Shown piece after piece: positions 4,991 through 60,494 of a stretch of DNA of 64,000 nt. The stretch is taken from assembly GCA_041671645.1 (NCBI GenBank), contig JBAZBD010000001.1, positions 671,234 to 735,233 on the forward strand. Direction: 5' to 3'. The position numbers and the translations under genes were made by a program. Below the pieces are notes generated by a model. That model saw only the letters and a program-made list of their open reading frames with translations, had not been told where the DNA came from and searched no databases. The DNA comes from Patescibacteria group bacterium (GTDB lineage: Bacteria; Patescibacteriota; UBA1384; XYA2-FULL-43-10; 1-14-0-10-43-13). Position 1 is the first letter of the stretch, and every line of letters starts with the position of its first letter.

Positions 4991-5024
4991 AAAAAAATGA
5001 CCCAGTGGGTCATTTCATTTTTTG
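4991..5024. terminator. palindromic hairpin flanked by A and T runs (possibly bidirectional)
   Basis: aaaaaaATGACCCAGTGGGTCATttcatttttt: near-perfect 17-nt palindrome between an A-run and a T-run. Confidence 0.6.
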
Positions 5025-8470: not shown

Positions 8471-10019
8471 AATGGAAGAACCAAAAAAACAACCAACAAT
8501 GGCAGAAATAATGGCTGACTACGATAAAGCTATGGCATTTTTATCCCAAACTCCCGCAGAGGTATGGGAAGGAATCTCCGAGAAGACAGCGCTAGGTGTC
8601 TTCAAAGAGACCGCAGGGTCTATTCCAGCATATGGTCAAATACTAAAAAAGAATTCTGTCGACCCTGAAAAAATTACTAGTATGGCTGATTTTCATAATC
8701 TGCCAATAATTGACAAATATAACTATATAAATAAATTTTCTTTCGACGAGACTAACACTGTCAAGCCAGGAAACCATTTTTATAGTTTTACACTAAGTTC
8801 TGGGACTATAGATGAGCCAACAATCTGGCCAAGATATTATGATTGGGAAGAGTCATTACCCAGCCAGTTTGATATGTATATGAGCCTCTATTGGGGATTT
8901 AGAGACAAGTCGACCCTATTTATTAATGCCTACTCGCTTGGATGCTGGACTGCTGGTTGGACAGTAAACGTACTTGGGAGAGAGTTGACTCAGAAACGCA
9001 ATATGACGCTAGCAACCTGCGGCGCCGATCTCGACAGTATCGTCTACACTATTAAGAAATTATCAAAATATTATGACCAAACGGTTATTTGGTCATACCC
9101 CACCTTTGCTCGAACGATATTGGAACGGCTAGAAATAGAAGGTATCAACATCAGAAAGTTAAATCTTAAGCTTTTTATCGCCGGGGAGCATCACACCATT
9201 GAGTGGAAACACTACGTCAACAAATTAATCTCTGGTGATGAGTCGAAACTCACTGACATCATGGAGGGTTATGGTACCTCAGATGGTGGGATGATCGGCC
9301 TGTCTTCGGCCTTTAGCACTCTTGTGAGGGAGCTTTCCTATACGGATAAAAAATTGTGTGAAGATCTGTTTGGTAGGGATGACTGCGTTCCTTCTCTATT
9401 CCAATATTTTACCAGCACCTACTATATGGAGGAGCAGAATGGCGAAGTGATATTCACGACAAAAGCCACCACCCCCTTAATTAGATACAACATTCACGAT
9501 CGTGGAGGTGTTATAAAATTCAGAGAGATGGAGCAAAAACTCGCCGAGCATGGCTATGACTATAAAAAGATCCTCAAGGAAAAGGGCTTCTCAGCAGAGA
9601 GCATTTGGCAGCATCCATTCTTGTTTTGCTTTGGCAGGCGTGATGACACGATCGCAATTGCAGGGGTAAAGATCTACCCAGAGCAGATTGCCCCAGCAAT
9701 TTTCTCTGGAAAAATGAATGATGTTCATAACTTCAAATTAATACTCTCCTTTGACAAGCAGCAGAAACACGCCTTTGAGATCGCCCTTGAGTTGAAAGAT
9801 GGCAAAAAACATAAGCATGAAGCTGTGAGGACACTTGAACGCAAATATCACGACTTGATTACCGCCGAGTTGAGTCGGAACAATACAGATTACTATGACC
9901 TTGTGAAGATCGAAGGCAAGGGAGCTGACCCAGAAATCAGCATTTACGAATTTGGAACTGGTCCATTCTCTGGTGATCTGCGAAGGACTAAACCGAGAAT
10001 GGTCGTTCGAGAGTCATAG
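8463..10019 (+). CDS. ANL-superfamily adenylate-forming enzyme, GH3 / F390-synthetase (PaaK)-like
   Basis: SSGTIDEPTIW (P-loop-like SSGT), EGYGTSDGG, and LIRYNIHDRGGV resembling the GH3 YRYRvGDv motif; 518 aa. Confidence 0.6.
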   Translation: MSKMEEPKKQPTMAEIMADYDKAMAFLSQTPAEVWEGISEKTALGVFKETAGSIPAYGQILKKNSVDPEKITSMADFHNLPIIDKYNYINKFSFDETNTVKPGNHFYSFTLSSGTIDEPTIWPRYYDWEESLPSQFDMYMSLYWGFRDKSTLFINAYSLGCWTAGWTVNVLGRELTQKRNMTLATCGADLDSIVYTIKKLSKYYDQTVIWSYPTFARTILERLEIEGINIRKLNLKLFIAGEHHTIEWKHYVNKLISGDESKLTDIMEGYGTSDGGMIGLSSAFSTLVRELSYTDKKLCEDLFGRDDCVPSLFQYFTSTYYMEEQNGEVIFTTKATTPLIRYNIHDRGGVIKFREMEQKLAEHGYDYKKILKEKGFSAESIWQHPFLFCFGRRDDTIAIAGVKIYPEQIAPAIFSGKMNDVHNFKLILSFDKQQKHAFEIALELKDGKKHKHEAVRTLERKYHDLITAELSRNNTDYYDLVKIEGKGADPEISIYEFGTGPFSGDLRRTKPRMVVRES

Positions 10020-11804: not shown

Positions 11805-12620
11805 ATGACACGCAAGATATTTTCTTTTATCGTTGGATTTTTGGCTTTTATTGTATTGCTTCTTTTCTTCTTGGCATTGAATTTCAAAATTGCCCTCTCT
11901 GACCCGGGCAAGATTTCTAGATATATCAAGAATTCGGGCGCAAGTGAGTTGATTATCAGCTACATCAAAGAGAATTTGGTTGCCACCAACAATGTATCTC
12001 TCTCTGAGGGCACGAATCTGGAGATTGTGAACGAGAGCATCACGACAGAGCTAATTAATCCGCTAATAGACGAAGCGGTTCTCCGCACCAGCTTAGCGCT
12101 AAATGATCCTAGCCCAGAAAATTTGAAATTTGACCTCACGTACGACACTTCAAATCAGACAGTTTTTCCTACAAGCACTGTCTTTACCAAAACCGTGGAT
12201 CTGCGCAACAACCAATACTTTTTAATCCTGGCCAATTTGAATTTATATCTTTATATTCTAGGCGGCGCATCTCTGGCGCTAATACTGATTACCCTATTGA
12301 TATTGAAGGACACGCAGGACAGAATCGCTTTCGCTGGTCGTTTTCTGGTCGTATTGAGCCTTGCAATCGCTCTCGTATATCTGGCCCTAGTCTACCTGGC
12401 CCCGAGTTACGTCCGAAATGCCTTCAGTCTGACTGGGTTTGCCAGCGACGCCAGACTAGCCAACGCGATGAAGAAAATATGGATTTTCTCGGTAGAGAAG
12501 CAATTCGCATTATATTTTGCCGAATTTCTTGTCTTCTTTGTTTCTGGCGGAGTGCTCGGCTATCTGGGTGGGATGTTTCGAAGATTACCATTAGGCGAAA
12601 AAATGGAGATCAAGATATGA
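11805..12620 (+). CDS. membrane protein (hypothetical)
   Basis: Several hydrophobic helices; overlaps the next gene by ATGA. Confidence 0.5.
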
Positions 12621-13453
12621 AAGATTATTCATACGGTGTCATACCAATTTTCCACAAGATAATAGGCCAAGAGCCTCATTTTTTGTTGGTAGAACAGGGT
12701 GGCAAGTTTTGGAGTTTCCCCAAGGGCCACAAGGAGGATGAAGAATCTGATGTTGAGGCGGCCAAGCGGGAACTTTTCGAAGAAGCTGGGATTGCTGGCG
12801 GTGAATTGATTGAAGACAAAACTTTCAGTGAGCATTATACATATTCACAAGATGGCACCGATCTTGATAAAACTGTCACTTTCTATCCATATTTCTCGAA
12901 TCAATTCTTCCCGATAATCGACAACAAAGAGATCACCAATTTCAAATGGGTGACGTATGAAGAGGCCAAGAAAACTTTAAAATTCAAGGAAACTCTAGAT
13001 ATTTTGACGGAGGCTTATAATTGGCTTCAGGGTGAAGGAAAAGATGCTTATTTAGGGACAGAATCGACGCCCAGAAGAGTTCACGCTGATTCGCTCAAGG
13101 CCGCGATCAAAAGAGATGGTAAATATTTGCTCATAATGGACCATCATGGCAATTGGGAATTACCTGGTGGCAAGATCGAGGCCGGAGAGACGGTGGAAGA
13201 GGGATTAAGGCGAGAGTTTCGAGAAGAGACCGGTAGCACAGACCTAAAAACTGGTGAAGAAATAGGGACTTTTGATCTGACAGTCGATTACGGCCTGGCA
13301 GTATATGATTTTAGCATTCACATTTACCTTTGCTCTAGCGATATTGAGAACATCAAACTCAGCCACGAGCATCAAGACTCAGGCTGGTTTGATATAGATG
13401 AAATCAAAAATCTTCCGATGAAAGAGGGCTACAGAGAAATACTTACTCGCTAA
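12617..13453 (+). CDS. tandem Nudix hydrolase (two Nudix domains)
   Basis: Two Nudix boxes: [23 protein letters not shown] and [23 protein letters not shown]. Start set at the internal ATG ([10 protein letters not shown]) because of the ATGA overlap. Confidence 0.75.
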
Positions 13454-15486: not shown

Positions 15487-15743
15487 TATAATCGAGATAT
15501 GCATTATCTCTATTTATTGCAAAGTGAGACAGACAAGTCTTTATACATTGGCCAGACATCGGATTTAAAAGTTCGATTATGCGATCATAACTCGGGTAAA
15601 AATCAATCAACAAGATTGAAGAAACCTTGGAAATTGATTTATTACGAAGCATATCTCGATCCAAGCCTGGCAATCAAACGTGAACGGCAATTGAAAAGAT
15701 TCGCCAAATCGTATGCAATGTTGAAGAAAAGAATAGGCTTGTA
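15487..15743 (+). mobile_element. insertion in the RNase P RNA P3 loop that carries a GIY-YIG ORF (homing-endonuclease-like)
   Basis: A perfect 17-bp inverted repeat (the P3 stem) immediately flanks an 81-codon GIY-YIG ORF, and the stop codon abuts the 3' stem arm. No group-I-intron core is evident. Confidence 0.4.
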
Positions 15744-15744
15744 G
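15499..15744 (+). CDS. GIY-YIG nuclease-domain protein (YhbQ/UPF0213-like), paralog 1
   Basis: YLYLLQSETDKSLYIGQTSDLKVRLCDHNSGK ... PWKL matches the GIY-YIG core. Confidence 0.7.
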   Translation: MHYLYLLQSETDKSLYIGQTSDLKVRLCDHNSGKNQSTRLKKPWKLIYYEAYLDPSLAIKRERQLKRFAKSYAMLKKRIGL

Positions 15745-16205
15745 CATCAAGGGTGAGGGGAGGAAAGTCCAGGCACCATAGAGCAGGACGCTCGTTATAA
15801 ATGAGCAGGCAGTAATGTCTGAGAACAGCGCAACAGAAAATAAACCGCCCCTCACCCTTTGTGGACAAAAAATCCGAGATTCGGATTTTGACGCAAGTCA
15901 GTCCATGAAGGGTGAGGGGTAAGGGTGAAATCGTGCTCCGATGTTAAATTCGGAGTCTCGCAATCGTTGGATTGTTGAGAGGGTAAGAGCCCACGCGTTC
16001 GTATGGCGACATACGTCTGTGGCAAGCCTCGTTTGGTGCAAGTGGGGTGGACCGTTTGAATTAATGTCTGCTCGACAGATTCAAAAGGCCCTCACGCTTA
16101 GATAGATTGCTGTCCAAAACAGAACCTGGCTTATGCTTGACTTTGAGCAAAACAAGACTATAATTCTTATATATCACCCTGATTGAAGTAATTTGTGGCC
16201 CATAA

Positions 16206-18442: not shown

Positions 18443-19186
18443 TTATTTTCCGTCATCGAATTGCATCGAGTCTGGATCCTCTCGTCCCATGCACATGATT
18501 CTATAGATTTTATTTGGAAAATCTTCATTTAGATAGACAGCGTACACCGGAGGATCTTCATCAGTGTATCCATGCCGTGTACGCTCATGGCAATATTCCA
18601 ATATATTTTCCAAGTCCTTATCAGTAGAGTCGCGGAAAGTCGATGCAAGTACTCCATCAGTGCCATAATATCGCACTTTGAGACTGACTCGCCTACTCTC
18701 TCTGTCGAAAGTACTGATCCTTCTGGTCAGAACAGCGGGCACAAACCCGCCAATGTTCCACCACCTTAGAATCCATACTTCGTCTCGATGGACTATCCGG
18801 GACTTTTTTCCGCGGATAAAATACCATAACATCACGCCATCAAGATCTTTGTCTGGCTGTCTTGGTGCTGATTGCGTTACAGCGCGGATGGTACGCCAGC
18901 CCAAGATAGACCACATCAACAAAATTAACGCTACTATCGATGCATCTGCACCGCAGAAAAGACAATATTGCATCAAAATATTATTGATGCAGTAGCCAGC
19001 AGTTGCGGCTGCTCCGCCAGCAATTGCTGAACGGATATCGGTCTTGTACTCTCTTCTCTTGTGAAAGTACCCAGGCCCCAGATCCATCTGACGGCCCCAT
19101 ATCTTCAGAATTGGCAATGCCACCCCGAAGAACACGCAAACTAGGAAACCCAGCCAATTTATGGCTGTTCCAATAATAATCCACAT
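18443..19186 (-). CDS. membrane-anchored hypothetical protein
   Basis: N-terminal TM helices (MWIIIGTAINWLGFLVCVFFGVALPIL) followed by a soluble domain with no recognisable motif. Confidence 0.4.
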   Translation of the reverse strand: MWIIIGTAINWLGFLVCVFFGVALPILKIWGRQMDLGPGYFHKRREYKTDIRSAIAGGAAATAGYCINNILMQYCLFCGADASIVALILLMWSILGWRTIRAVTQSAPRQPDKDLDGVMLWYFIRGKKSRIVHRDEVWILRWWNIGGFVPAVLTRRISTFDRESRRVSLKVRYYGTDGVLASTFRDSTDKDLENILEYCHERTRHGYTDEDPPVYAVYLNEDFPNKIYRIMCMGREDPDSMQFDDGK

Positions 19187-19363
19187 AAGTACCTCCTTCC
19201 TTGCTGATTTGAAAATGGGACAAGATGGTCCGATCAGCAAGTGAGCTTGTGGTAAAAACACCATAACACAAAAATTATGTGATTTAAATCGTGAGATTTG
19301 AGTTTAGATCCCTTGAATAGATAGTGCCTTTATTGTATAAATATGGCAGAGGAGGGTTGAAAA

Positions 19364-23527: not shown

Positions 23528-24856
23528 TTATTTTTTGACTTCGATTTCGAGGACGTAGACCCCAAGGGCCTCACGTTCTTCTGAGTAAATCTCTCGAAGT
23601 AGCCAGAGGACCTGATCCCAATTTTTGTCTGGGACAATCTTGGTGTGATCCTCCACATTCAGCATCTCTTCAAAGTCACCGTAGACACGAACGTCTTTCA
23701 CATGGATCACGCTCTGCTCTGTGCTGGAAGCAAGGAGAATGTCCTCGCCCGGTCGGATAGTTTTGATATTATCATACCCAACACGCACTTCGATGGTTTT
23801 CTGGCCAGACGTAATTTGTCTTAAGAGATGGTTCTTTACTCTTATGGTTCTCACTGTATTCCCTCCAACTTTGAAACTCCACTGCTGTGTCACCTTTCGT
23901 GGATGATATGCAGCAGGCATTGCGGCATCCAAGCTCCAACCAAGCTTTTGTAAGACAATCGTCTCTTCTACACCCGGCACGATATGGATATAAAGCTTGT
24001 GTCCATATGCCGAAAGAACGAATGGTAGGTCTCGGAGCAGAGCGATCATTGCGCAGATATTGTTCGCGCACAGAGGCATGACCTTGATCGGTTCTCCCTT
24101 TTTGGGTGTTGCTCCCGCAACGCCCAAAACATTGTTCTCTCGATCAACAGCGACATACACCAATTTGTATTTTGTGTTAATGTCGCCAGTACCACGTCTG
24201 TAGTACCCTTCAAAAAGCGAGCCGACCCAAGAATCATCAATACCGTTAAAACACGACTTTAGATTTTCAAGGATCAACTTGCGTACCTGGTCTTCGTGTC
24301 TCAGCTCCATTGGAATTACCGAGATATTTAACGCTTCCTCGATATCACAGCTTGATGTGTCCGCAATAAGCTTGTAGAGCATCGTCTCAACAATCCCAAT
24401 CTTGTAGTGACTGTCAGACTCACCAGCGATCAGATAACCTTTCCTGAGGAAAAAACCCAGAGCTAAAGTATTCTGTTTTGCAACAGTGCAGTAAATCTGC
24501 CTCGCACCGTTGGATTCGGCATACTCTTCTGCTTTCGCGAGAAGCTGGCTACCATAACCTTTGGTCGAGCGGAAATGTGGCGATACGATCAGCGGACTGA
24601 TTTTGTACGTACCCTGTCTCTTGCCAACCACATGAACCATCCCGACAACTTCGTCGTCGACGCAACCGACAAACATTTTCTGTTCTTTGGAGAAATGTCC
24701 GATAGCATCAACCCCACCGGAAATGTGGGTCTGAAAAATCCGCTCGGCATGCGACGTATGGTCGCCACCGTAGTAAGGTTCGAGTGCTTCTTTCATCAAC
24801 TCGATAACAGTTTTAAGGTCAGCACTTATCGCTTCCCTTATGCAAAGTTCGGCCAT
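23528..24856 (-). CDS. GNAT-GNAT-ASCH fusion protein
   Basis: N-terminal GNAT (RSTKGYGSQLLAKAEEYAESNG), a second GNAT-like middle domain, and a C-terminal ASCH/PUA-like domain (LLRQITSGQKTIEVRV...VIHVKDVRV). Start set at MAELCIRE. Confidence 0.6.
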   Translation of the reverse strand: MAELCIREAISADLKTVIELMKEALEPYYGGDHTSHAERIFQTHISGGVDAIGHFSKEQKMFVGCVDDEVVGMVHVVGKRQGTYKISPLIVSPHFRSTKGYGSQLLAKAEEYAESNGARQIYCTVAKQNTLALGFFLRKGYLIAGESDSHYKIGIVETMLYKLIADTSSCDIEEALNISVIPMELRHEDQVRKLILENLKSCFNGIDDSWVGSLFEGYYRRGTGDINTKYKLVYVAVDRENNVLGVAGATPKKGEPIKVMPLCANNICAMIALLRDLPFVLSAYGHKLYIHIVPGVEETIVLQKLGWSLDAAMPAAYHPRKVTQQWSFKVGGNTVRTIRVKNHLLRQITSGQKTIEVRVGYDNIKTIRPGEDILLASSTEQSVIHVKDVRVYGDFEEMLNVEDHTKIVPDKNWDQVLWLLREIYSEEREALGVYVLEIEVKK

Positions 24857-25000
24857 GTACAGCCTCCTTCGTCTGTCGCTAACCATGCTTTGGTTTGAGC
24901 GACTGGAAACTCCCTTGCGGGGTAACATTCTTATAACATAAGAAACTAATTTAGTCAACAAAAAAATCCTCCCTCTTGCCCTGCTACGGATAGTACATTT

Positions 25001-28953: not shown

Positions 28954-29724
28954 ATGTACTATTATATTTTCGATATCAAGAGATGCAAGAATAAGACACT
29001 CGTAACTGACATCAAAAGCTACTTGTCTTCTCTTGGCATTTCCGGAGAATTTACCTATCCTTCGGCCGCCTACACCACCGAGGAGCTTGTCGACTTGGGC
29101 ATCTCCAAGAAATATAACACTATCGTCGGAATCGGCAGTGATGATTTGGCGAATTCGATTGCCAGTCGCCTTTGCGGGCGACAAGAAGCGATGGGTATGA
29201 TTCCGCTCGAAGCTTCGGCCGAGCTCACCGCCCTTATCGGAGCGAAAACCTGGCGCGAAGGCGCGGAGAACCTAAGATATCGCAAGATTACCACTATGAA
29301 AATAGGCAAAACCGCAAATGGTAGCGGATTTTTGACTGATTTGGAGTTGGCGTTGAAGGGACCGACTGAGATAACGATCGAATTTCGAGATTATATGGTC
29401 CAGGCTAAGGTAACCAAACTGGTTATCTCTAACTTCAACCCTGAAATTACGAAGATCGGACCAGACTTTCTCGATGTCGTATTCGAAAGTGTTGCTCCAG
29501 AACAAAATATGCTCTCTAGAATTGGAAATTTTCTCGGCATGGGCAAAGATGACCACAAAAGCAGTTTTTCCCTTTTTCGAGGCCGCTCACTCCGACTTTT
29601 CACAAGCTCTCAGATTCCGCTCGCCTCAAAGGGCCACGCGATAGCCAAAACTCCTCAGTTGGTCGAGAGCTCAGACGAAGATTTGCGTTTAATCATCGGC
29701 AAAAAGAGTGTCATCCTAGAATAA
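28954..29724 (+). CDS. hypothetical protein (weak DAGK/NAD-kinase-like GGDGT remnant?)
   Basis: TIVGIGSDDLANSIASRL; no firm assignment. Confidence 0.35.
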   Translation: MYYYIFDIKRCKNKTLVTDIKSYLSSLGISGEFTYPSAAYTTEELVDLGISKKYNTIVGIGSDDLANSIASRLCGRQEAMGMIPLEASAELTALIGAKTWREGAENLRYRKITTMKIGKTANGSGFLTDLELALKGPTEITIEFRDYMVQAKVTKLVISNFNPEITKIGPDFLDVVFESVAPEQNMLSRIGNFLGMGKDDHKSSFSLFRGRSLRLFTSSQIPLASKGHAIAKTPQLVESSDEDLRLIIGKKSVILE

Positions 29725-39786: not shown

Positions 39787-41118
39787 ATGAAACTAGATAT
39801 CTTCAAAAATGGATCCCCAATACTTCGCACACCCACAGAAACGGTGACTGATTTTGACATGGAACTCCAGAAAACTATAGACGATATGATCGAGACGATG
39901 AGGGGCGCCAACGGAATCGGCTTGGCCGCACCACAGATCGGTAGCTCGAAGAAATTATTGGTCTGCGAATTTGCAGGAGATGAAGAGAGCAAGATTCCGG
40001 CTGTCCCGCTAACTGTCCTTTGCAACCCCGAAATTGTTCAATCGTCAGACGAACTAAAAAATATGGTCGAGGGCTGCCTTTCCTTCCCTGGTATGGAGTT
40101 GATCGTGAAAAGACCGAAAAAGGTGAAGGTGAAGGGCTTTGATAGATATGGCGAACCGATCGAGATCGAAGCTGACAATTTGTATGCTCGAGTGCTACAG
40201 CACGAGATCGATCATCTAAATTGCACCCTTCTGGTCGACCATCTAGAGGAAGTTGACGTTATTTTTATCGGCACTGGCACGCTCGGCGTCCCTGCGCTCA
40301 ATGCCCTAGCAACAGACCCGCAATATCGCATCAAACTTGTCATCACCGGTGAAAATCTTGCCGTCTCAAGAACTCATGCCGACAACATCAACCCAATCGA
40401 GGAAACTGCCAAGAAATACAAGATCCCAATTCTCAAGACCAAGAATATCAAGGATCCTGAAACAATTGAGAAAATCAAAGCGACTAAGCCAAAAATTGGC
40501 ATTATGGCTGATTTTGGTCAGATCGTCAGCGAGGAGATTCTCAACATTCCAGAGTTTGGCATCATCAATATTCATCCTTCACTACTTCCTAAATACCGTG
40601 GACCCTCTCCAATCCAGCAACCGATTCTGGACGGCGTCAAAACTACTGGCGTAAGTCTGATACTAACGGCGAAGAAAATGGATGCTGGCGACCTTGTTTC
40701 TCAAACTATTGTGAAACTTCAAGGTTCGGAAACTTCTACTATTCTGAAGAACTTCCTGGCCGAAGTCGCTGCAACGCAACTTCTGAATTCCCTGCCCTAC
40801 TATATCGCTGGCGACTTGAAGCCTGAGCCACAGGGAGAGAAGCGGATCAGCTATACCCGCCTTTTCACGAAGGAGGATGGCCTTGTCACCGAAACAACTC
40901 CAGCAGTAGAGGTTGAGAGGAAAATTCGCGCTTTTGACGCTTGGCCCAAGGTCTACACTATGGTCAAGGGCAAGAGAGTCCAGCTTCTCTCTTCACATTT
41001 CGATAAAGAAAATAATTTCTTCATCGACCGAGTCAAACCAGAGGGCAAAAGTGAGATGAGTTATGAAGACTTTGTCCGAGGTTATCATACCGAAATCAAA
41101 TTCTCTGAATCGCGTTGA
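39787..41118 (+). CDS. def-fmt: peptide deformylase - methionyl-tRNA formyltransferase fusion protein
   Basis: Residues 1-155 carry the Def motifs GIGLAAPQIG, EGCLSFPG and QHEIDHLNC. Residues 157-443 are Fmt (VIFIGTGTLGVPALNAL; NIHPSLLPKYRGPSPIQ). Single uninterrupted ORF. Confidence 0.8.
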   Translation: MKLDIFKNGSPILRTPTETVTDFDMELQKTIDDMIETMRGANGIGLAAPQIGSSKKLLVCEFAGDEESKIPAVPLTVLCNPEIVQSSDELKNMVEGCLSFPGMELIVKRPKKVKVKGFDRYGEPIEIEADNLYARVLQHEIDHLNCTLLVDHLEEVDVIFIGTGTLGVPALNALATDPQYRIKLVITGENLAVSRTHADNINPIEETAKKYKIPILKTKNIKDPETIEKIKATKPKIGIMADFGQIVSEEILNIPEFGIINIHPSLLPKYRGPSPIQQPILDGVKTTGVSLILTAKKMDAGDLVSQTIVKLQGSETSTILKNFLAEVAATQLLNSLPYYIAGDLKPEPQGEKRISYTRLFTKEDGLVTETTPAVEVERKIRAFDAWPKVYTMVKGKRVQLLSSHFDKENNFFIDRVKPEGKSEMSYEDFVRGYHTEIKFSESR

Positions 41119-47678: not shown

Positions 47679-48713
47679 ATGAATTTCTATATCAAAGTTT
47701 TCGGCTGTCAGTACAACGAATGGGACAAGACACGTCTCGCTTTTGTTTTGAATAAATTTGGTCTGACGGAATCATCAGAAGAAAGTGCCGAGATTGTTTT
47801 CCTGTTAAATTGTTCTGTTCGCAAAACTGGCGTTGACCGAGCTCTCGGCTTCGCACGGAATTTTATCGATCAGAAGAAGAAGGTCGTAGTTACTGGCTGC
47901 GTCCTCGAACCCGACAAGAAAAGATTCCTGGAAAAGGGCGCCATACTTTGGGACGGCAAAGACTTTTCAAAATTGAATGAAGCTTTGAAATTAGAACCTA
48001 CAGATGAATTACAAACTAAAAACTATGAACTAAAAACTAGCCTGGTTCCCATCATGACCGGCTGCAACAATTTTTGCTCATACTGCGCCGTGCCATATAC
48101 TCGTGGCCGAGAAGTTTCACGATCGGTTGAAGACATATTAAATGACGTTCGCCGCGCTGTTGAAGCAGGAGAAAAAGAGATCGTTTTGCTTGGACAAAAC
48201 GTGAATTCTTATTCAAATGACTTTGCTAAATTGCTAGAACAAGTAAACGCGATTCCTGGTGATTTTAAAGTCAAATTTACCAGCAATCACCCCAAAGATA
48301 TGTCTGACGATATTATCGAGGCGGTCGCAACTCTGCCCAAAATTGCTAAAGAAATTCATCTCCCTCTACAATCCGGCAGTAACAAAGTATTACAGAGTAT
48401 GAATCGTCCGTACACCCGAGAGCAGTATCTCGATTTGGTAAGTAAAATCAAAAAACGTATTCCAGAGATTAGAATTACGACCGATTCAATAATTGGTTTC
48501 CCGACCGAAACGGAGGAAGATTTTGAGCTAACAGTCGACGTTTATAGACAAGTCGGCTTCGCCCAAGCGTTCAATAATAAATATTCGCCCCGCGAAGGGA
48601 CTAAGGCTTGGGAGCTAGGTGACCCGATCCCTTGGGCCGAGAAACAACGCCGCTGGCGTGTGCTCAACGACATAAGCTACCAAAAGAGCGAAAAGCCAGC
48701 TATTGCATTATAG
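47679..48713 (+). CDS. radical SAM methylthiotransferase, MiaB/RimO-like (short, no obvious TRAM domain)
   Basis: N-terminal MTTase Cys triad (VFGCQYNE..., LLNCSVR..., VTGCVLE) and radical SAM CNNFCSYCAVPYTRG. Confidence 0.7.
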   Translation: MNFYIKVFGCQYNEWDKTRLAFVLNKFGLTESSEESAEIVFLLNCSVRKTGVDRALGFARNFIDQKKKVVVTGCVLEPDKKRFLEKGAILWDGKDFSKLNEALKLEPTDELQTKNYELKTSLVPIMTGCNNFCSYCAVPYTRGREVSRSVEDILNDVRRAVEAGEKEIVLLGQNVNSYSNDFAKLLEQVNAIPGDFKVKFTSNHPKDMSDDIIEAVATLPKIAKEIHLPLQSGSNKVLQSMNRPYTREQYLDLVSKIKKRIPEIRITTDSIIGFPTETEEDFELTVDVYRQVGFAQAFNNKYSPREGTKAWELGDPIPWAEKQRRWRVLNDISYQKSEKPAIAL

Positions 48714-51477: not shown

Positions 51478-51930
51478 TTATTGCATGAACATTTCGGTCG
51501 CACCTTCGGGTAAGTGGACATCGCGAATTTTGCCTCTGATCATCGCCTCCCAACAAGGCTGGCAACACCACCAATGTCCCCAGAGATAGACGTCTGCCCC
51601 CTCGGTATCGATGCCCGCCTCGATCGCTTTGTTCACAACCAAAAGTTCGGAGTGGCCCTCCTGTTCGCAAATTTCCTTGCAGAGATGATAATCAGTCCCA
51701 GTCTTGCTTTTTGCAACTACCCTGGGGCAAACTTCGACTAATTTGCCAGCGTTGGTCGAAGTCATTAAAACTTTGCCGTTTTTGACCAACACTGCACCGG
51801 TCGGCTGTTTGCGACAGCCGGTCTTCTCGGTCGCTTTCTTGGCCGCTAGGATGAACGGATTATCGACCGCCACATATTTGATCTCTCTGCCTTCAGGCAG
51901 ATAGGGGCAATTGATTTTTTTCTTCGTCAT
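51478..51930 (-). CDS. cytidine/deoxycytidylate deaminase-family protein (dCMP deaminase-like)
   Basis: HSELLVVNKAI (HxE) and CQPC zinc ligands in WWCCQPCWEAMI. Confidence 0.65.
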   Translation of the reverse strand: MTKKKINCPYLPEGREIKYVAVDNPFILAAKKATEKTGCRKQPTGAVLVKNGKVLMTSTNAGKLVEVCPRVVAKSKTGTDYHLCKEICEQEGHSELLVVNKAIEAGIDTEGADVYLWGHWWCCQPCWEAMIRGKIRDVHLPEGATEMFMQ

Positions 51931-52621
51931 TTTTTTCTGTTTTTATCGGTGCATCTGGAACTTCTACGAGATAATTCTTCTTGATTTTGTCGACTGCACC
52001 ATCTCGAAGAAGGTTAATTTCATCGTGCGGATCAAATTTGTAGTCTAGCTGATAGCCTTCGACACCCTGATATTTTGGCTTGGAAAGGCCATGTTCCTCC
52101 GCTTCTTTGACCGTGATATCATGCTCCATGGTCTGGAAGACGAGCTGTGCGATTCTCTCGCCGGGATAAATTCTGATTTTCTGAGTCTTGGTCATGTTGA
52201 AAACTGGAATCATGAGAGAGCCAGAGAAATGAGGGTCGATAATGCCTGATTCGATCGAGATGCCACGACGAGTAGTCGAACTCCGAGGGTAGAGAGTGGC
52301 CATGATCCGACCGGAGTTGATATTGATCTTCTCGAGAGTCGAAATGAGGATGAATTCACCCGGAAGTAATTCGAAGGTTTGGCCGGGCTTCAGGTGCAGG
52401 ATATCTAGAACTTCGCTTTTCACCTCGTTGTTCAAATGATCAACCATCAATTCTGTCCGGCCTTCTTCGCTGAAAGACCAAGTCTTGGGGATAAAGAAGT
52501 TGGAGCCGACGCGAACATCAATTGCGGCTGGTTGAAGTTGAAATTGGTCAACTCCTGGCTCAAAAGTTAGCTCGCCCTGGCTGATAGATTTGATAATTTC
52601 ACTCTTTGTCAGAATTCCCAT
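51893..52621 (-). CDS. dCTP-deaminase-fold (dUTPase superfamily) protein lacking the catalytic Glu; candidate dCTP/dUTP pyrophosphatase
   Basis: Aligns with E. coli Dcd (AIDVRVG; RSSTTRRGISIESGIIDPHFSGSLMIPVFN against [32 protein letters not shown]). The Glu of VLEF is replaced by Pro. About 60 aa of C-terminal extension. Confidence 0.6.
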   Translation of the reverse strand: MGILTKSEIIKSISQGELTFEPGVDQFQLQPAAIDVRVGSNFFIPKTWSFSEEGRTELMVDHLNNEVKSEVLDILHLKPGQTFELLPGEFILISTLEKININSGRIMATLYPRSSTTRRGISIESGIIDPHFSGSLMIPVFNMTKTQKIRIYPGERIAQLVFQTMEHDITVKEAEEHGLSKPKYQGVEGYQLDYKFDPHDEINLLRDGAVDKIKKNYLVEVPDAPIKTEKNDEEKNQLPLSA

Positions 52622-53132
52622 AGTTCACTCCGTATTTTAATAATACCGTTTGATTTGCTTTTTTGACGCTCTTCAAATGCAGATTAACATCTCTTTTGAC
52701 GTCGGACAATATTCTCATGCCAAAACCGAATATCTTGGGCTCTACTGTAATCCAGAGCTCATCGATAAGTTGCTTGTCGAAGAAAAGACTATTAATCATG
52801 CTTCCGCCGCCAATGAATACTTTCTTGAATCCCCGCTTTTTCAAATTTTTTAGTACCTCAGCTGGAGGCGTGTTGACCACAAACTCGAGCAAACCCGGTT
52901 TCTCTAATTTTTTGTCCTCCGGGTTCATAGTCATGACATAATTGAGACGACCTGGAAGTGGCCTGTCGCCAAAGGTGGCGAAGGTGTTGCGGCCAAAGAC
53001 AATGGCGCCGCCCTTTTTCGTTTCTGCGACGAAGAACTGTTTGTCTTCCTTCGAGGTCCAATTGGCGGTGTGATCCTTGTCATGAGCGATCACTCCGTCC
53101 AGAGACTCAGCCATAATAATTATTGTTTTCAT
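52599..53132 (-). CDS. dihydrofolate-reductase-superfamily protein (RibD_C-like)
   Basis: MKTIIIMAESLDGVIAHDKDHTANW ... VFIGGGSMINSLF; overlaps the thyA-like gene by 4 nt. Confidence 0.65.
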   Translation of the reverse strand: MKTIIIMAESLDGVIAHDKDHTANWTSKEDKQFFVAETKKGGAIVFGRNTFATFGDRPLPGRLNYVMTMNPEDKKLEKPGLLEFVVNTPPAEVLKNLKKRGFKKVFIGGGSMINSLFFDKQLIDELWITVEPKIFGFGMRILSDVKRDVNLHLKSVKKANQTVLLKYGVNYGNSDKE

Positions 53133-53959
53133 AATGCGATTTTCATTTTTTTAACTGCTGCTTTGGGATTGTATTGACTGCTTAAGATTTCAAATATTTC
53201 CATAATCAGTGATTCATCGCCTGCCATCGCTCGATCGAGCCAATCTGCCTTGGGCTCAAATACAATGGGGGGATGAGAATTTACCCGATTGAGAAGTTCG
53301 TGTGCTTGAGCATAATGATTTTCATAGATGTGAGCGTTGGAAACGGTATGGGTATAGACACCTGGCTTCACTCCCAATTTGGCGGCTAATAGATACTGAA
53401 GTAATGCAAAGCCAGCGGTGTCGTGAGGACAGCCCAACATCATGTCGTTTGAACGAACGACCGAATGAAGGTGGAGTTTGTTGCCGATAATATTGACGGT
53501 GAAAGTGTATGGACAGGGCACATTTTTCTTCTTGGTGCCGCTCGATAGCCCATCATCAGCTGGGTCCCAGGTCACCACCACTCCATGGCGAGATGAAGGA
53601 TCCTTTTGTAGTAATGTAACCAGATCGGCAATCTGATCACGGCCAAAGGCGTGACGCCAACGATAACCGTAGGCCGCCGCCACTGTCCCGTCTTCCTCCA
53701 AGAAGTCGTCCCAAATCTTGGTGTATTTGTCCAAGAACTCGTCCGGCCTCTGTCCCCCTGAGAGATACCAGACCATTTCAGCCACGAATATTTTGATCGG
53801 GATTTTGCGCAAAGTCAGAATTGGAAAGCCAAAATCAACTTGAAAAGTGAGTCCTGGCACCGCCTTGGTCTTGAGACCCGTGCGGACATTCAACTCTTCA
53901 ATGCCTTCGTTCATCACTCTGGCGATTGCGTTTTGGTAGACCTTGTCAAACTGTGTCAT
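53129..53959 (-). CDS. thymidylate-synthase-family enzyme with Asp at the pyrimidine-specificity position (predicted dCMP 5-methylase/hydroxymethylase rather than canonical ThyA)
   Basis: Aligns end to end with E. coli ThyA (RWRHAFG, DQIADLVTLLQKDPSSRH, catalytic Cys in VPCPYTF, RSNDMMLG). The segment LGLPFNIASYALL of TS reads LGCPHDTAGFALL here, so Asn177 is replaced by Asp. Confidence 0.75.
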   Translation of the reverse strand: MTQFDKVYQNAIARVMNEGIEELNVRTGLKTKAVPGLTFQVDFGFPILTLRKIPIKIFVAEMVWYLSGGQRPDEFLDKYTKIWDDFLEEDGTVAAAYGYRWRHAFGRDQIADLVTLLQKDPSSRHGVVVTWDPADDGLSSGTKKKNVPCPYTFTVNIIGNKLHLHSVVRSNDMMLGCPHDTAGFALLQYLLAAKLGVKPGVYTHTVSNAHIYENHYAQAHELLNRVNSHPPIVFEPKADWLDRAMAGDESLIMEIFEILSSQYNPKAAVKKMKIAL

Positions 53960-54523
53960 TTATTTCTCGCCCAATTCTAATATTATTTTGTCGATCTTCT
54001 GATAAAGATCGTCGAAGTTACCCGAGTTGTCAATTTTCCGATCGGCCATAGCGGTTGTCAAGTCGATCTGGGGAGCGTTATTGGCACCAGACTTTTCCTG
54101 CTCCTCTTTCGCAACCAAATCATCAATCGTTTTGATCGCGTCATCCTCGCCACCTTTGTTCCTCGCCTGCATGCGCTGAAAACGTATCTCTATTGGCGCA
54201 TATATTTCCCAAAGTTCAAAATCAGGGCTTTTTTTCAAAGCTTCAACTTCGCCAGTTTGGCGAACAGCCGGGACGACCCAATCGCCGCCAGTTTCGTTTA
54301 TTTTTTTGAGAGCTTGTTCCGCCAAGTATCCCGTCCCGAACTCGGCACGTAATTCGTTGCCTTTTTGTAGTAAATTTTCACGAATTAATTCTTTGCCTTC
54401 CGCTCGCAAATGGTCACGAATTATATCTGAAAGAGAAACACGTTTATATCCCTTTTTCTCAACTAAATAATCACCCACTGTGTCTTTGCCGCCAGCAAAC
54501 CAACCTGTAATTCCGATAATCAT
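53960..54523 (-). CDS. P-loop nucleotide kinase with GxxxxGKDT Walker A (T4 gp1 dNMP-kinase-like; tentative)
   Basis: MIIGITGWFAGGKDTVGDYL compared with T4 gp1 MKLIFLSGVKRSGKDTTADFI; 187 aa; abuts the thyA-like start. Confidence 0.5.
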   Translation of the reverse strand: MIIGITGWFAGGKDTVGDYLVEKKGYKRVSLSDIIRDHLRAEGKELIRENLLQKGNELRAEFGTGYLAEQALKKINETGGDWVVPAVRQTGEVEALKKSPDFELWEIYAPIEIRFQRMQARNKGGEDDAIKTIDDLVAKEEQEKSGANNAPQIDLTTAMADRKIDNSGNFDDLYQKIDKIILELGEK

Positions 54524-54565: not shown

Positions 54566-55810
54566 TTATGACTCAACCCCAGGGACCGGGAACTTCGTCG
54601 CCATTTCTTTGACCTCAGCTTTGACTTCGGCCAATTTCTCGGCCTTGTCCATATTCTCTGCCACTATATTAAACATTTCGGCGATTCTCTGCATCTCGGC
54701 CACGCCCATGCCACGAGTAGTCAACGCGGCTGTCCCCACTCGAATGCCCGAAGCAATTTTGGGCGGATTGGGATCTGCCGGCACTCCGTTTTTGTTGACT
54801 GTAATACCAGCTTCGTGAAGAGCGTACTCAAAATCCTTGCCGGTCAGATTTTTGTTTCGTAAATCAACTAATACCAGATGATTGTCCGTCCCGCCAGTGA
54901 CCAGCTCAAAATCAAAGGATTGGAGGGTCTTGGCAAAGGCTTGCATATTCTCCAGTACCTTGCCGATATATTCTTTGAAATCTGGGCGCAGTGCCTCGCC
55001 AAATGCGACCGCTTTGGCCGCGATGACGTGCTCGAGCGGCCCGCCCTGGAGCATGGGGAAGACGGCTTTGTCGATCTTCTTGGCCAGCTCCTCGTCATTG
55101 GTCATAATAATCCCACTTCGAGGCCCGCGCAAGGTTTTGTGAGTGGTGGAAGTTACAATGTCGGCAATTCCGATTGGTGACTCATGATATCCAGTCGCGA
55201 CCAAGCCAGCGATATGGGCGATGTCAGCGATCAAAACAGCGCCGACTTCATCAGCTATCTCCCTGAATTTCTTGAAATCAATTGCGCGAGGATAAGCTGA
55301 GTAGCCGCACATGATCACTTTTGGCTTGACTTCGAGGGCGATTTCTCTGATCTTGTCATAATTCAATCTGCCAGTCTCGGGATCAATGCCGTAAAAGTGG
55401 GAGGTGAACCATTTGCCGGAAAATGAAACCTTGGCGCCGTGGGTCAAATGTCCCCCCGCGTCCATGGCTTGGCCGAGAATAACGTCGCCTGGTGATGCCA
55501 CAGCGGCGTAAGCGGCCATATTGGCAGAGGAGCCGGAGTGCGGCTGGACATTGGCAAAGTTGCAACCAAAAAGCTTCTTGAGCCTATCGATCGCTAGAGA
55601 TTCGGCCTGATCGACGCATTCGCAACCGCCATAATATCGAGAAGCAGGATAACCTTCGGCGTATTTGTTGGTCAATATCGATCCCGTTGCCTCCAATACG
55701 GCTTCTGAAGCGTAGTTTTCCGAAGCGATCATCTCAAGTCCTTCGACTTGGCGCTTTTTTTCGCACTCGATAATTTCAAATATTTCTTTGTCTGATTCTT
55801 TTAAATTCAT
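54566..55810 (-). CDS. glyA: serine hydroxymethyltransferase
   Basis: LIASENY-like IASENYAS, PLP-Lys region TSTTHKTLRGPRSG, full-length conservation. Confidence 0.95.
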   Translation of the reverse strand: MNLKESDKEIFEIIECEKKRQVEGLEMIASENYASEAVLEATGSILTNKYAEGYPASRYYGGCECVDQAESLAIDRLKKLFGCNFANVQPHSGSSANMAAYAAVASPGDVILGQAMDAGGHLTHGAKVSFSGKWFTSHFYGIDPETGRLNYDKIREIALEVKPKVIMCGYSAYPRAIDFKKFREIADEVGAVLIADIAHIAGLVATGYHESPIGIADIVTSTTHKTLRGPRSGIIMTNDEELAKKIDKAVFPMLQGGPLEHVIAAKAVAFGEALRPDFKEYIGKVLENMQAFAKTLQSFDFELVTGGTDNHLVLVDLRNKNLTGKDFEYALHEAGITVNKNGVPADPNPPKIASGIRVGTAALTTRGMGVAEMQRIAEMFNIVAENMDKAEKLAEVKAEVKEMATKFPVPGVES

Positions 55811-55905
55811 AAAAATCCTTGTGATTGTCATCCTGAACTTGATTCAGGATCTAGATTATTTGGTAGGTTCCGGATCAAGTCCGGAATGACATTCTTCGCC
55901 TCAAC

Positions 55906-56556
55906 TCATAGGTCCTCGCTTTTGATCTCACTTTTCAGCTCATCTAGAAAAACTTTTGTAAAATTGTATCTTTTCTCAGCAATTTCCTTCGAATATGGGA
56001 AGTTCAGATTTTCGTATTTTTGAAGAGGCCCTCGGTCTAGAGCGTCTACAAAGCTGTGATTTAGCCAGACTTCCTTTGACTCCGGCACAGGTTCGTCATT
56101 CACAATTGGATAGCCTCTCTCGCCATAATAATAGGCGATTCTACTGATCCCGATCGCTCCCATCGATTCCAGACGGTCTGCGTCCTGTAAAATCTTTGTC
56201 TCGACATGGTTAGTCTCTTCTCCGTCATGACCCCAAGCATAATTATCATGCAGACGAATCGCTTCCAATACGTCATCCATTTTGGCAGGAGGGAAACCGA
56301 GCTCAGGCAACCATTTTTTGGCGATTTCCATACTGTACTTAAAATGATGCTTGTCATCATCTTCATGATTTTTGTATCCGATATCGTGAAGCAAAACTGC
56401 TGCAACTAAAATCTCTTCATCGCAAGCAATATTTTTTGAGATTTTAATTGCAATATCTTTGACCCTTTCCAAATGATAAAAATCGTGGCAAGCGGTGTAG
56501 CCTTTCAAATATTCTTTGATCTTCTTTTCTAATTTGTCTTGCCAATCATATTTCAA
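55906..56556 (-). CDS. HD-domain phosphohydrolase
   Basis: H...HD...D: CHDFYHLERV, LLHDIG, DADRLE. Confidence 0.7.
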   Translation of the reverse strand: MKYDWQDKLEKKIKEYLKGYTACHDFYHLERVKDIAIKISKNIACDEEILVAAVLLHDIGYKNHEDDDKHHFKYSMEIAKKWLPELGFPPAKMDDVLEAIRLHDNYAWGHDGEETNHVETKILQDADRLESMGAIGISRIAYYYGERGYPIVNDEPVPESKEVWLNHSFVDALDRGPLQKYENLNFPYSKEIAEKRYNFTKVFLDELKSEIKSEDL

Positions 56557-57239
56557 ATCAATTCCTTCTTTACAATCTCAAAAACCTTCTCTGATATCTC
56601 TTCAATCGGCAAAATCTTGTCGTCAACTGCGCAATCAATTTTACGCCATTCTGGGTACCTATCTGCTAGCCAAAGATATGTTTTTTCGACTTCAAGCAAA
56701 TACTCGCTGTTGCTTTCGTGGATATCTCTTTTTGCGTCAGTATAACTTCTTTTGGCCTTCTGATCGACTAGAATCTGGCCAATCTTGAAAGGGACATAAA
56801 GATAAACAACCAGATCAGGCTTTGGGATATTGAAAACATGGTATTCCAATTCGTAAAGCCAATCTAGAAATTTCTGGCGTTCTTTTTCATCTGGAAACAG
56901 CGCGCCAGAGAAAGCCATGTTTGATTGCACGTAACGATTTGAGACAATGATCTTGCCCGCGCTCAAATCATTCCGCATCTTCTCAGACACCTCGTAACGA
57001 TCGCCTGCGTACATTAGAGAGATTAGATATGGCGAAATTTGTTTGGTTGTTCCAAATTCGCCATTGAGATATCGTCCCACCATCTTGCCAAAGAATGTCT
57101 CTGTGTACTGGGGGAAATCATAATAGGCGATCGAGTGGCCCAGGCTTTTCAACTTTTCAACTAAAATATCAGACTGCGTCTTCTTGCCCGCTCCGTCAGA
57201 TCCGTCAATGACGATAAAAGTTCCTTTTTGTTTTGCCAT
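56553..57239 (-). CDS. tmk: thymidylate kinase
   Basis: FIVIDGSDGAGKKTQ P-loop, SNRYVQSNMAF (DRY-type); 228 aa; 4-nt overlap with the HD gene. Confidence 0.8.
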   Translation of the reverse strand: MAKQKGTFIVIDGSDGAGKKTQSDILVEKLKSLGHSIAYYDFPQYTETFFGKMVGRYLNGEFGTTKQISPYLISLMYAGDRYEVSEKMRNDLSAGKIIVSNRYVQSNMAFSGALFPDEKERQKFLDWLYELEYHVFNIPKPDLVVYLYVPFKIGQILVDQKAKRSYTDAKRDIHESNSEYLLEVEKTYLWLADRYPEWRKIDCAVDDKILPIEEISEKVFEIVKKELI

Positions 57240-57540: not shown

Positions 57541-57912
57541 TTAGCTCTCCAATTCTTTGCGCTCTTTGTCGGTTTGTCGATTAATATTCATCTCGTGGTC
57601 GTATTTGTCAGGATAGCGAGTCTTCAATTTACGAATATTCTTGTCCCAAATATCTTCGAAAGAAACACCCAATTCATCGGCCAAAATAGCCAGGTACCAC
57701 ATTACATCTCCCGCTTCCTCAACCAAATTGATCTTGTCGAGCGGTTTTTCGTAAATTTTTGTCTTCTTAACCGCCGACATGAGCTCGCCCGCTTCGGTCA
57801 CAATGCCATAAACAGCATGCTCGATCCGAGGTGACAAATCCCGAAAGGCAGGAAAAGCGTATGGTTTTGACTCTGTCCTCTTGGCATTCTCAATATATTC
57901 TTTTGGTGTCAT
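57541..57912 (-). CDS. MazG-like all-alpha NTP pyrophosphohydrolase
   Basis: VTEAGELMSAV and EEAGDVMWYLAILADELG, the EExx[ED] pattern of the MazG/HisE family; 123 aa. Confidence 0.65.
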   Translation of the reverse strand: MTPKEYIENAKRTESKPYAFPAFRDLSPRIEHAVYGIVTEAGELMSAVKKTKIYEKPLDKINLVEEAGDVMWYLAILADELGVSFEDIWDKNIRKLKTRYPDKYDHEMNINRQTDKERKELES

Positions 57913-59903: not shown

Positions 59904-60494
59904 TCATTTTTTCTTAACTGTAATCTTTTGCGCTTTCTTCGGCTCAGCTTTTGGCACTGTGATCGAGAGAATGCCGTCTTTCATTTCGGCCTCTGCTTTA
60001 TCGGCAACTACTTCGGCTGGCAAAGTGAAACTCCGCTCAAACCTGCCCGTATGGCTCTCTTTATAATAATAGTGCTCTTCGTTATCGGAATATTCGCCCG
60101 CGATCGTCATCACATTGTCCATGATCTCGACATTGATATCTTCCTCTTTCATCCCTGGCAATTCTACTCTGACCACGATAGCATCTTTGGAATCTAGAAT
60201 ATCAATTTTTGGTGTTAGGCTTTGCGGATTCGGCGCGGCGAAACCATCGCGTGACTCGTCAATCAATATCTTTTCTATTTCATGTTCAAATTCAAAAATA
60301 TCTTCGAAGGCGGTATCAAAAAATTGGCAGAGCGAAACTGCCAGCGGCAGAGAAGGCATTGAGCGCCCCGACTCGAGCGAAATTATTGATTGGCGAGAAA
60401 TGCCGAGATGTTCGGCTAGCGCTTCCTGAGAGAGATCGCGCTTCTTGCGCCAATCCTTAATCCTGATTTCAATTGGAAAATCTTTGTCATCCAT
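59904..60494 (-). CDS. XRE-family HTH fused to an Hsp20/alpha-crystallin domain
   Basis: N-terminal LSQEALAEHLGISRQSIISLESGRSMPSL (Cro/C1 HTH); C-terminal AIVVRVELPGMKEEDINVEI...GRFERSFTLP...DGILSITVPK (sHSP ACD). Confidence 0.8.
   Translation of the reverse strand: MDDKDFPIEIRIKDWRKKRDLSQEALAEHLGISRQSIISLESGRSMPSLPLAVSLCQFFDTAFEDIFEFEHEIEKILIDESRDGFAAPNPQSLTPKIDILDSKDAIVVRVELPGMKEEDINVEIMDNVMTIAGEYSDNEEHYYYKESHTGRFERSFTLPAEVVADKAEAEMKDGILSITVPKAEPKKAQKITVKKK

Follow-up and report, generated by a model that had tools for sequence, protein, structure and literature searches.

The stretch of DNA analysed here (the window) comprises 64,000 nucleotides of an ultrasmall Patescibacteria group bacterium (assembly GCA_041671645.1, contig JBAZBD010000001.1, positions 671,234 to 735,233) and is ordinary bacterial chromosome, carrying RNase P RNA, tRNAs, UvrA, UvrB, PriA, Der, BipA and a Def-Fmt fusion. 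The RNase P RNA is of the bacterial class A (15716..16149, plus strand, 121 bits, full-length model match), which confirms a cellular bacterial origin. On the minus strand a run of genes encodes, in transcription order, a thymidylate (dTMP) kinase (Tmk), an HD-domain phosphohydrolase, a serine hydroxymethyltransferase (SHMT), a protein resembling nucleoside monophosphate (NMP) kinases, a thymidylate synthase (TS) homologue with Asp at the pyrimidine-specificity position (hereafter TS(D)), a dihydrofolate reductase (DHFR), a protein with the fold of dCTP deaminase (DCD-like) and a zinc deaminase. Databases label the TS homologue as thymidylate synthase. From its signature residues and gene context we consider it likely that this protein is a C5-methylase of deoxycytidine monophosphate (dCMP) and not a thymidylate synthase acting on deoxyuridine monophosphate (dUMP).

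The TS(D) gene is complete, with an ATG start and a stop codon within its range, and its product has 276 amino acids. An earlier note, made from the sequence alone, had proposed homology to TS over the full length, and this was borne out by a match to the Pfam family PF00303 (Thymidylat_synt; residues 7-236, E 5e-54, 183.6 bits, gathering cut-off 24.3). It was also borne out by an AlphaFold model (predicted local distance difference test, pLDDT, 86; predicted template modelling score, pTM, 0.88), which superposes over its entire length on solved TSs with template modelling (TM) scores of 0.77-0.80, sequence identity to these being 25-29%. The motif LGCPHDTAGF occupies residues 175-184. In the HMMER alignment with solved TSs, LGCPHDTAGFALL is aligned to LGVPFNIASYALL ('lgcphdtagfall' over 'lgvpfniasyall'), and MAFFT alignment with E. 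coli ThyA gave the identical register. The alignment on which the earlier note relied is therefore not shifted, and Asp180 corresponds to Asn177 of E. coli ThyA (E. coli numbering is used below for positions of the family).

Among the residues retained with respect to E. coli are Cys149 (C146), Arg26 (R21), Arg124 (R126) and the RSxD motif Arg169-Ser170-x-Asp172 (R166, S167, D169), all of them invariant among the orthologues, as well as Glu61 (Glu58), Tyr97 (Tyr94), His210 (His207), Tyr212 (Tyr209) and Trp80 (E. coli numbering). The C-terminal tail (...KKMKIAL) is TS-like and may be compared with ...IKAPVAI of E. coli. The catalytic Cys, the Arg residues and RSxD had been described as kept, which is correct apart from the phosphate-binding Arg127, here His125. 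The description of the Asp as the only striking change did not stand, since His147 is replaced by Pro150, Gln165 by Val168, Phe176 by His179 and Leu143 by Asn146, and an insertion, DPADDGLSSGTKKKNVPCP, precedes the catalytic Cys. The active-site set that defines canonical ThyA (Asn177, His147 and Gln165) is absent, with Asp180, Pro150 and Val168 in its stead. In the canonical enzyme His147 and Gln165 bond uracil O4 through water and orient Asn177, and so support the hydrogen-bond network around O4/N3.

The identity of residue 177 bears directly on the substrate. Substitution of Asp for this Asn (N177D in the E. coli enzyme, N229D in that of L. casei) turns TS into a dCMP methylase, and in a metavirome genotype-phenotype study TS positions 177 and 147 were those that best separated cytosine-modified from unmodified phage contigs (eLife 2021; PMC8670742). 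Asp occupies position 177 in all of 120 close database homologues (62-97% identity) and in all of 84 orthologues from Patescibacteria genome loci, and because it is fixed in both sets it reflects neither chance nor sequencing error. The accompanying substitutions are likewise fixed among the 84 orthologues, with Pro at 147 in 83 and, in every sequence, Val, Ile or Leu at 165 and His or Gln at 127; Asn is found at 143 in 120/120 of the close homologues. Among the 150 nearest cluster representatives (50% identity clusters), position 177 is Asp in 126 and Asn in 18. These 18 have Arg127 without exception and His147 in 17 cases, whereas in the Asp177 sequences position 147 is occupied by Pro or by an aliphatic residue.

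A search of 50,697 phage genomes gave Xp12, PaMx74 and their relatives among the best matches (E 1e-42 to 8e-48). The TS homologue of Xp12 and five of seven other D177 phage TSs produce 5-methyl-deoxycytidine (5mdC) in E. coli, and in Xp12 and PaMx74 cytosine is fully replaced by 5-methylcytosine (5mC; bioRxiv 10.1101/2024.12.05.627091). The Xp12 deoxycytidylate C5-methyltransferase (EC 2.1.1.54), with its PaMx74-like/Bradleyvirinae relatives, has the TS fold and about 39% identity to TS(D) over 240 residues (tblastn E 1e-42). The phage and Patescibacteria proteins have in common Asn143, Pro147, a hydrophobic residue at 165, Asp177 and an insertion ('DPAEDGLG..KNVPCP') before the catalytic Cys, and their neighbours are also alike, with a dCMP-deaminase-family gene, DHFR and a pyrophosphohydrolase nearby. 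Unlike the Xp12 enzyme, TS(D) of the Candidate Phyla Radiation (CPR, Patescibacteria) is chromosomal, belongs to a free-standing bacterial lineage and is inherited across many Patescibacteria classes; it forms a clade of its own in a neighbour-joining (NJ) tree, position 127 is His or Gln and not the Arg of Xp12, and the operon adds a DCD-fold protein lacking the catalytic Glu and often Tmk, while the deaminase is not detectably similar. With canonical ThyA (EC 2.1.1.45; E. coli, L. casei) it shares the full-length fold (TM about 0.8), the catalytic residues, the C-terminal tail and the coupling to DHFR and SHMT, but it differs by Asn177Asp, His147Pro, Gln165Val, Arg127His, Leu143Asn and Phe176His. 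The switch to a cytosine substrate suggested in the earlier note is thus supported by the Asp together with the changed position 147, by the covariation of Asn177 with His147 and by the place of the Xp12 TS homologue among the best phage matches. We predict that TS(D) and its close relatives represent the cellular clade among the Xp12-type deoxycytidylate methyltransferases (EC 2.1.1.54).

The scan for distribution, in which one genome per GTDB species was used, showed that at least 291 species genomes encode a close relative of TS(D), in a setting of housekeeping genes. The taxa concerned are Falkow-, Uhr-, Kuenen-, Magasanik-, Nomura-, Moran-, Harrison- and Portnoybacteria, Paceibacterota and Minisyncoccia, and on one contig labelled as Gracilibacteria the gene order is identical. 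A scan of IMG/VR gave a single close relative on a contig labelled as viral (IMGVR_UViG_3300025858_000007, 5001..5831, 57% identity; locus L094), where neither DHFR nor a deaminase adjoins the TS gene and the operon is missing; this contig may stem from a phage of Patescibacteria or be a piece of cellular DNA that was sorted wrongly. With its wide distribution in species genomes and this single close relative in IMG/VR, TS(D) is a cellular core gene, probably vertically inherited, and not prophage cargo.

The genes around TS(D) are closely packed (Table 1). The stop codon of the kinase gene abuts the TS(D) start codon (0-bp gap), TS(D) and DHFR overlap by 4 bp, DHFR and the DCD-like gene by 23 bp and the DCD-like and deaminase genes by 38 bp; gaps of 74 bp and 42 bp separate the HD-domain gene from SHMT and SHMT from the kinase. 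As read from the sequence, the TS(D) operon is translationally coupled. The partners were counted within 10 kb on either side of TS(D) at 84 loci, the window included. Natural fusions also occur among the nearest relatives, in which a dCMP-deaminase domain or a MazG/PRA-PH pyrophosphohydrolase domain is joined to a D177-type TS (P0148, 433 amino acids; P0179, 424 amino acids). Two loci show a further arrangement of kinases: at a Falkowbacteria-type locus (L007, 14881..16125) dTMP kinase and thymidine kinase are fused in one protein of 414 amino acids, whose gene lies downstream of the TS(D) operon, a few genes away, and at another (L009) they are encoded by two neighbouring genes.

Table 1. 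Features of the TS(D) operon and frequency of its partner genes near TS(D)
Feature	Coordinates	Strand	Loci with partner	Remarks
MazG-like NTP pyrophosphohydrolase, possible dCTPase	57541..57912	-	5/83	301 bp upstream of tmk; phrog_229 E 2e-39
Tmk (dTMP kinase)	56553..57239	-	35/84	First gene of packed run; TIGR00041 86.3 bits, cut-off 83.25; PF02223
HD-domain phosphohydrolase, possibly nucleotidase	55906..56556	-		4-bp overlap with tmk
SHMT (serine hydroxymethyltransferase), regenerates 5,10-methylene-tetrahydrofolate	54566..55831	-	19/84	PF00464 E 4e-157; NF000586 613 bits
P-loop NMP-kinase-like protein	53960..54523	-	27/84	UPF0200/AdkA-like; phage dNMP-kinase family phrog_139, E 2e-14
TS(D), predicted deoxycytidylate C5-methyltransferase	53129..53959	-		Asn146/Pro150/Val168/Asp180 = E. 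coli 143/147/165/177
Motif LGCPHDTAGF	53408..53437	-		Residues 175-184 of TS(D)
Asp180 codon (GAC)	53420..53422	-		= E. coli Asn177 / L. casei Asn229, pyrimidine-specificity residue; HMMER and MAFFT
Catalytic Cys149 and Pro150 codons	53510..53515	-		E. coli C146; E. coli H147 replaced by Pro
DHFR (DHFR_1/RibD_C)	52599..53132	-	81/84	Pfam
dCTP-deaminase-fold protein without catalytic Glu (DCD-like)	51893..52621	-	46/84	PF22769 E 2e-28
Divergent zinc deaminase, dCMP-deaminase branch (HSE ... CQPC)	51478..51930	-	74/84	Pfam PF00383/PF14437; at most 3 kb from TS in 69/74
Thymidine kinase			8/84	

The presence of a second thymidylate synthase, which the earlier note had named as a point to check, was searched for, and no second thyA or thyX was found in the 64-kb window or within 10 kb on either side of the 83 orthologues. 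With phmmer, one TS was found per locus in the window and the 83 orthologue loci. A search of the loci with the ThyX motif (RHR-x7,8-S-x-R) as a regular expression gave short or antisense open reading frames (ORFs) only, the lone long match (locus L060, 540-1307) being a spurious ORF. Pfam analysis of 20 further large ORFs of the window identified housekeeping genes, with dcm, thyX and thyA not found among them.

The DCD-like protein exceeds the cut-off of the NCBIfam model for dCTP deaminase (TIGR02274, 104.7 bits against 92.8) and is annotated accordingly. In alignments with the bifunctional dCTP deaminase-dUTPase (DCD-DUT) of M. tuberculosis and with E. coli Dcd, the catalytic Glu (E. coli E138, M. 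tuberculosis E129) is replaced by Pro. The same Pro is found in 43 of 46 neighbouring orthologues, Glu being present in none, and in all 110 confident database homologues (P0391-P0500). The protein shares the fold and the nucleotide-binding motifs of E. coli Dcd and of the bifunctional enzymes of M. tuberculosis and M. jannaschii, retaining the RSS..R motif, the Asp of IDP and the C-terminal KYQG; in addition to the Pro, it differs from them by a C-terminal extension and at E. coli W131, which is Phe in the window and a dUTPase-like Tyr in most orthologues. The Patescibacteria 'dCTP deaminase' family with Pro for Glu therefore looks like a systematic mis-annotation, and its members are probably pyrophosphatases of dCTP (or of dUTP or 5-methyl-dCTP, 5mdCTP) and not deaminases. 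Since no DCD-like partner retains the catalytic Glu, the usual step from dCTP to dUTP or dUMP would not be encoded at the operon. The Dcd2 protein of Dictyostelium is a functional deaminase and has relatives in CPR. Elsewhere in the window (12479..13453, plus strand) a protein of 324 amino acids with two NUDIX stretches, similar to MutT and pyrimidine dNTP diphosphatases, could bear on the sanitation of dCTP or 5mdCTP.

For the zinc deaminase, comparison of the family profile with the PDB identified the dCMP deaminase of S. mutans (2hvv, E 4.5e-10), and the AlphaFold2 model (pLDDT 90) had as its best fold matches the deaminases of T4 (Cd), S. mutans and S-TIM5, the bifunctional dCMP/dCTP deaminase of PBCV-1 (7FH4) and human DCTD. 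The zinc motifs HSE (H-x-E) and CQPC (C-x-x-C) are invariant across the family, while the score against the ComEB equivalog model (21 bits, cut-off 219) marks it as a divergent member. It is predicted to turn a 5-methyl-dC nucleotide into a dT nucleotide. In phages, deaminases encoded beside D177 TSs prefer 5mC substrates, and synthesis of dTTP from 5mdCTP has been proposed; the characterised example, mSCD-B5, acts on triphosphates only (bioRxiv 10.1101/2024.12.05.627091). The mSCD-B5-type enzymes resemble the CPR protein in that a PF00383 deaminase stands beside a D177 TS, but the CPR deaminases are a clade apart, divergent and marked by additional conserved Cys, Arg and Tyr positions and by a GHWWCxxCW motif. 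The NMP-kinase-like protein could act as a kinase of dCMP or 5-methyl-dCMP (5mdCMP). When the kinase and the DCD-like protein were compared with phages by tblastn, only weak matches were obtained, to dNMP kinases encoded by phages of Gram-positive hosts and to Dcd proteins from haloviruses or enterobacteria.

The earlier note had left the product as either a methyl or a hydroxymethyl group. An acidic residue at position 143 marks hydroxymethylases (T4-like enzymes and MilA), and D169N marks 5-hydroxy-dCMP synthases (PMC13326640). In TS(D) position 143 is Asn146, as in Xp12 and PaMx74 (it is Asp in T4 gp42), and Asp169 is retained as Asp172. These two residues, together with the TS-like C-terminus and the presence of DHFR in 81/84 loci, favour a methylase. 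The near-universal presence of DHFR and its translational coupling to TS(D) by the 4-bp overlap argue that dihydrofolate (DHF) is produced, and by gene context the reaction is predicted to be reductive. Three other activities were considered and rejected: 5-hydroxy-dCMP synthase (D169N) on account of the retained Asp169; CMP hydroxymethylase of the MilA/BcmA type, as Arg126/Ser167 (here Arg124/Ser170) are the deoxyribose signature and MilA has Lys and Ala; and T4-type hydroxymethylase on its signature residues, with Asn at 143 and 276 amino acids including a TS tail against the shorter gp42.

T4 gp42 and MilA are nevertheless members of the TS superfamily that, like TS(D), have Asp at the 177 equivalent for cytosine recognition, and this shared residue is what a gp42-like dCMP hydroxymethylase, its 5-hydroxymethyl-dCMP destined for hypermodified DNA or a nucleoside natural product, would have in its favour. 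Such enzymes have Asp or Glu at 143, lack the TS C-terminus and regenerate tetrahydrofolate (THF) without a need for DHFR. TS(D) has Asn at 143 and the full TS architecture, no hydroxymethylase appears in its top 50 fold matches, DHFR is coupled to it although THF is not oxidised in a hydroxymethylase reaction, the nearby genes that were annotated include neither a glycosyltransferase nor other tailoring genes, and the ribose signature of MilA (Lys126', Ala167) is absent. We consider this activity very improbable, and of the two products named in the earlier note the methyl group is the one that the data favour.

The active-site residues and how far they are conserved, the arrangement of the genes and their families are observed; from these we predict the following route, in which the substrate of each enzyme and the sequence of reactions are inferred. 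The DCD-fold protein without Glu would hydrolyse dCTP to dCMP. Cys149 of TS(D) would attack C6 of dCMP while Asp180 would hydrogen-bond N3/N4 of the cytosine, and transfer and reduction of the carbon of 5,10-methylene-THF would give 5mdCMP and DHF, as the signature and the phage and mutant precedents suggest. DHFR and SHMT, both assigned at family level, would recycle the folate. The neighbour of the dCMP-deaminase family, acting at the mono- or triphosphate level, would convert the 5-methyl-dC nucleotide to dTMP or dTTP, and dTMP would be taken onward by Tmk. DHFR and the deaminase are the most constant partners of TS(D) and Tmk is often near, which fits a conversion of 5-methyl-dC to dT nucleotides as has been proposed for Xp12-like phages. 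That a conserved Patescibacteria operon makes dT nucleotides in this order, by methylation and then deamination, is in our judgement about evenly balanced. The hypermodification of genomic DNA that the earlier note took to be implied does not follow, as these same partners fit dT synthesis. Full-text searches of the literature gave no report of a methylate-then-deaminate route or of the D177 signature in Patescibacteria or other cells, and no paper that connects Patescibacteria/CPR with dCMP methylation or 5-methyl-dCMP, although phage precedent exists.

Several points weigh against this route and against the dCMP substrate. The case for a dCMP methylase is built wholly on signature residues and gene context. 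In the NJ tree (150 nearest representatives and references), with which the phylogenetic placement suggested earlier was carried out, the CPR clade consists of D-type sequences throughout and the N-type sequences come close to monophyly. The sister group of the CPR clade in this tree, whose rooting and method are weak, is not the Xp12 clade, and the signature common to CPR and Xp12 may be convergent. The CPR and Xp12 deaminases show no significant similarity by BLASTP, and 5mC selectivity is for that reason not transferable to the CPR deaminase by homology. TS, dCMP deaminase, DHFR and Tmk are also the canonical set of Gram-positive bacteria and T4, where deamination precedes methylation, and the sequence of the two reactions can therefore not be read from gene adjacency. 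It is on this textbook set, here with SHMT, that a more conventional explanation draws: TS(D) would be an ordinary dUMP-dependent TS that tolerates Asp (protonated, or compensated by His179), the deaminase would make dUMP from dCMP and the DCD-like protein would be a dUTPase. It agrees with the annotation and with TIGR03284 ('thymidylate synthase'), the cut-off of which is exceeded (125.2 bits against 108.35), with the intact catalytic machinery (Cys, Glu58, Tyr94, RSxD, His207, Tyr209 and the TS-like C-terminus), with the resemblance, by eye, of the C-terminal half of the DCD-like protein to E. coli Dut (LMIPVFN / PGERIAQ) and with the dUTPase-type Tyr at W131 in most of its orthologues. Nevertheless, Asn to Asp is the one change known to switch TS from dUMP to dCMP (cf. 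PMC8670742, PMC13326640), it is accompanied by the loss of His147 and Gln165, with the changes fixed in 84 orthologues, and the Asn177 sequences among the 150 nearest representatives keep Arg127 in all cases and His147 in 17/18. Natural enzymes with N143/P147/D177 produce 5mdC (bioRxiv 10.1101/2024.12.05.627091), and the seven other NCBIfam TS equivalog models are not reached, six of them being missed by far (for example NF002497, 151.9 against 327 bits). We therefore regard an ordinary, Asp-tolerant TS as unlikely.

A different fate of the product would leave the methylation of dCMP unchanged. The dNMP-kinase-like protein encoded in the operon could phosphorylate 5mdCMP towards 5mdCTP, which would then enter DNA, and this also speaks against a route ending in dT. 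On this explanation genomic cytosine would be largely or wholly 5mC, as in Xp12 and PaMx74; dCTP would be depleted by the MazG and DCD-like pyrophosphatases, and the deaminase would divert part of the 5mdCTP to dTTP, so that it overlaps with the methylate-then-deaminate route. The gene set (pyrophosphohydrolase, TS(D), deaminase, DHFR) parallels the module of Xp12 and PaMx74, two phages with fully methylated cytosine, and mSCD-B5 acts on triphosphates only (bioRxiv 10.1101/2024.12.05.627091). A kinase of phrog_139 type (E 2e-14) and a MazG-like protein of phrog_229 type (E 2e-39) are present at the operon, and a DCD-fold protein without predicted deaminase activity could be a dCTPase. Set against this, the kinase is near TS(D) in just 27/84 loci and the MazG-like gene, which is no conserved partner, in 5/83, while Tmk, which acts on dTMP, is commoner (35/84). 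By tblastn the kinase and the DCD-like protein have no special similarity to proteins of 5mC phages. The literature searches gave no report of unusual Patescibacteria DNA, a weak argument as apparently nobody has looked, and an essential supply of dTTP explains more simply a core gene in a superphylum of minimal genomes. Polymerisation of 5mdCMP in this way is, in our estimate, improbable. The broader proposition, that the whole Patescibacteria/CPR radiation is without a dUMP-methylating TS, has cytosine that is largely or completely 5mC and draws its dT from a deaminated 5-methyl-dC pool, we regard as still less probable.

A number of other features of the window were recorded. The Def-Fmt fusion (39787..41118, plus strand, 443 amino acids) joins peptide deformylase (residues 4-156) to methionyl-tRNA formyltransferase (158-409), thereby uniting the removal and the addition of the N-formyl group, and its formyltransferase half is folate-dependent. 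A protein of 196 amino acids (59904..60494, minus strand) has the unusual pairing of an N-terminal HTH_3 (Cro/C1-type) domain with a C-terminal Hsp20/alpha-crystallin domain, and another of 477 (23528..24961, minus strand) combines a GNAT acetyltransferase domain (58-176) with a C-terminal ASCH domain (375-476). A MiaB-like protein (47679..48713, plus strand) has UPF0004 and radical-SAM domains but is just 344 amino acids long, with no TRAM domain reported by Pfam. Four ORFs of 256-518 amino acids have no Pfam match at E <= 1e-4 (8463..10019, 11805..12620 and 28954..29724 on the plus strand, 18443..19264 on the minus strand).

If the methylate-then-deaminate route is correct, a large branch of the bacteria would make its dT from dCMP through 5-methyl-dCMP, which is unreported for cells, and hundreds to thousands of Patescibacteria genomes would carry wrong labels, 'thymidylate synthase' and 'dCTP deaminase', on the genes concerned. 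The metabolism reconstructed from such minimal genomes would change accordingly, and methylation ahead of deamination would avoid a dUMP/dUTP pool. The relationship to the phage enzymes could explain the origin of Xp12-type phage modules or an exchange with them. Selective deaminases of 5mC nucleotides are already used in methylation sequencing (bioRxiv 10.1101/2024.12.05.627091), and the CPR deaminases would be a new and diverse source of possibly 5mC-selective enzymes. The findings also raise the possibility of 5mC-rich cellular DNA; were this to prove genome-wide, Patescibacteria would be the first cellular lineage with a pre-replicative, genome-wide base substitution, a feature so far confined to phages.

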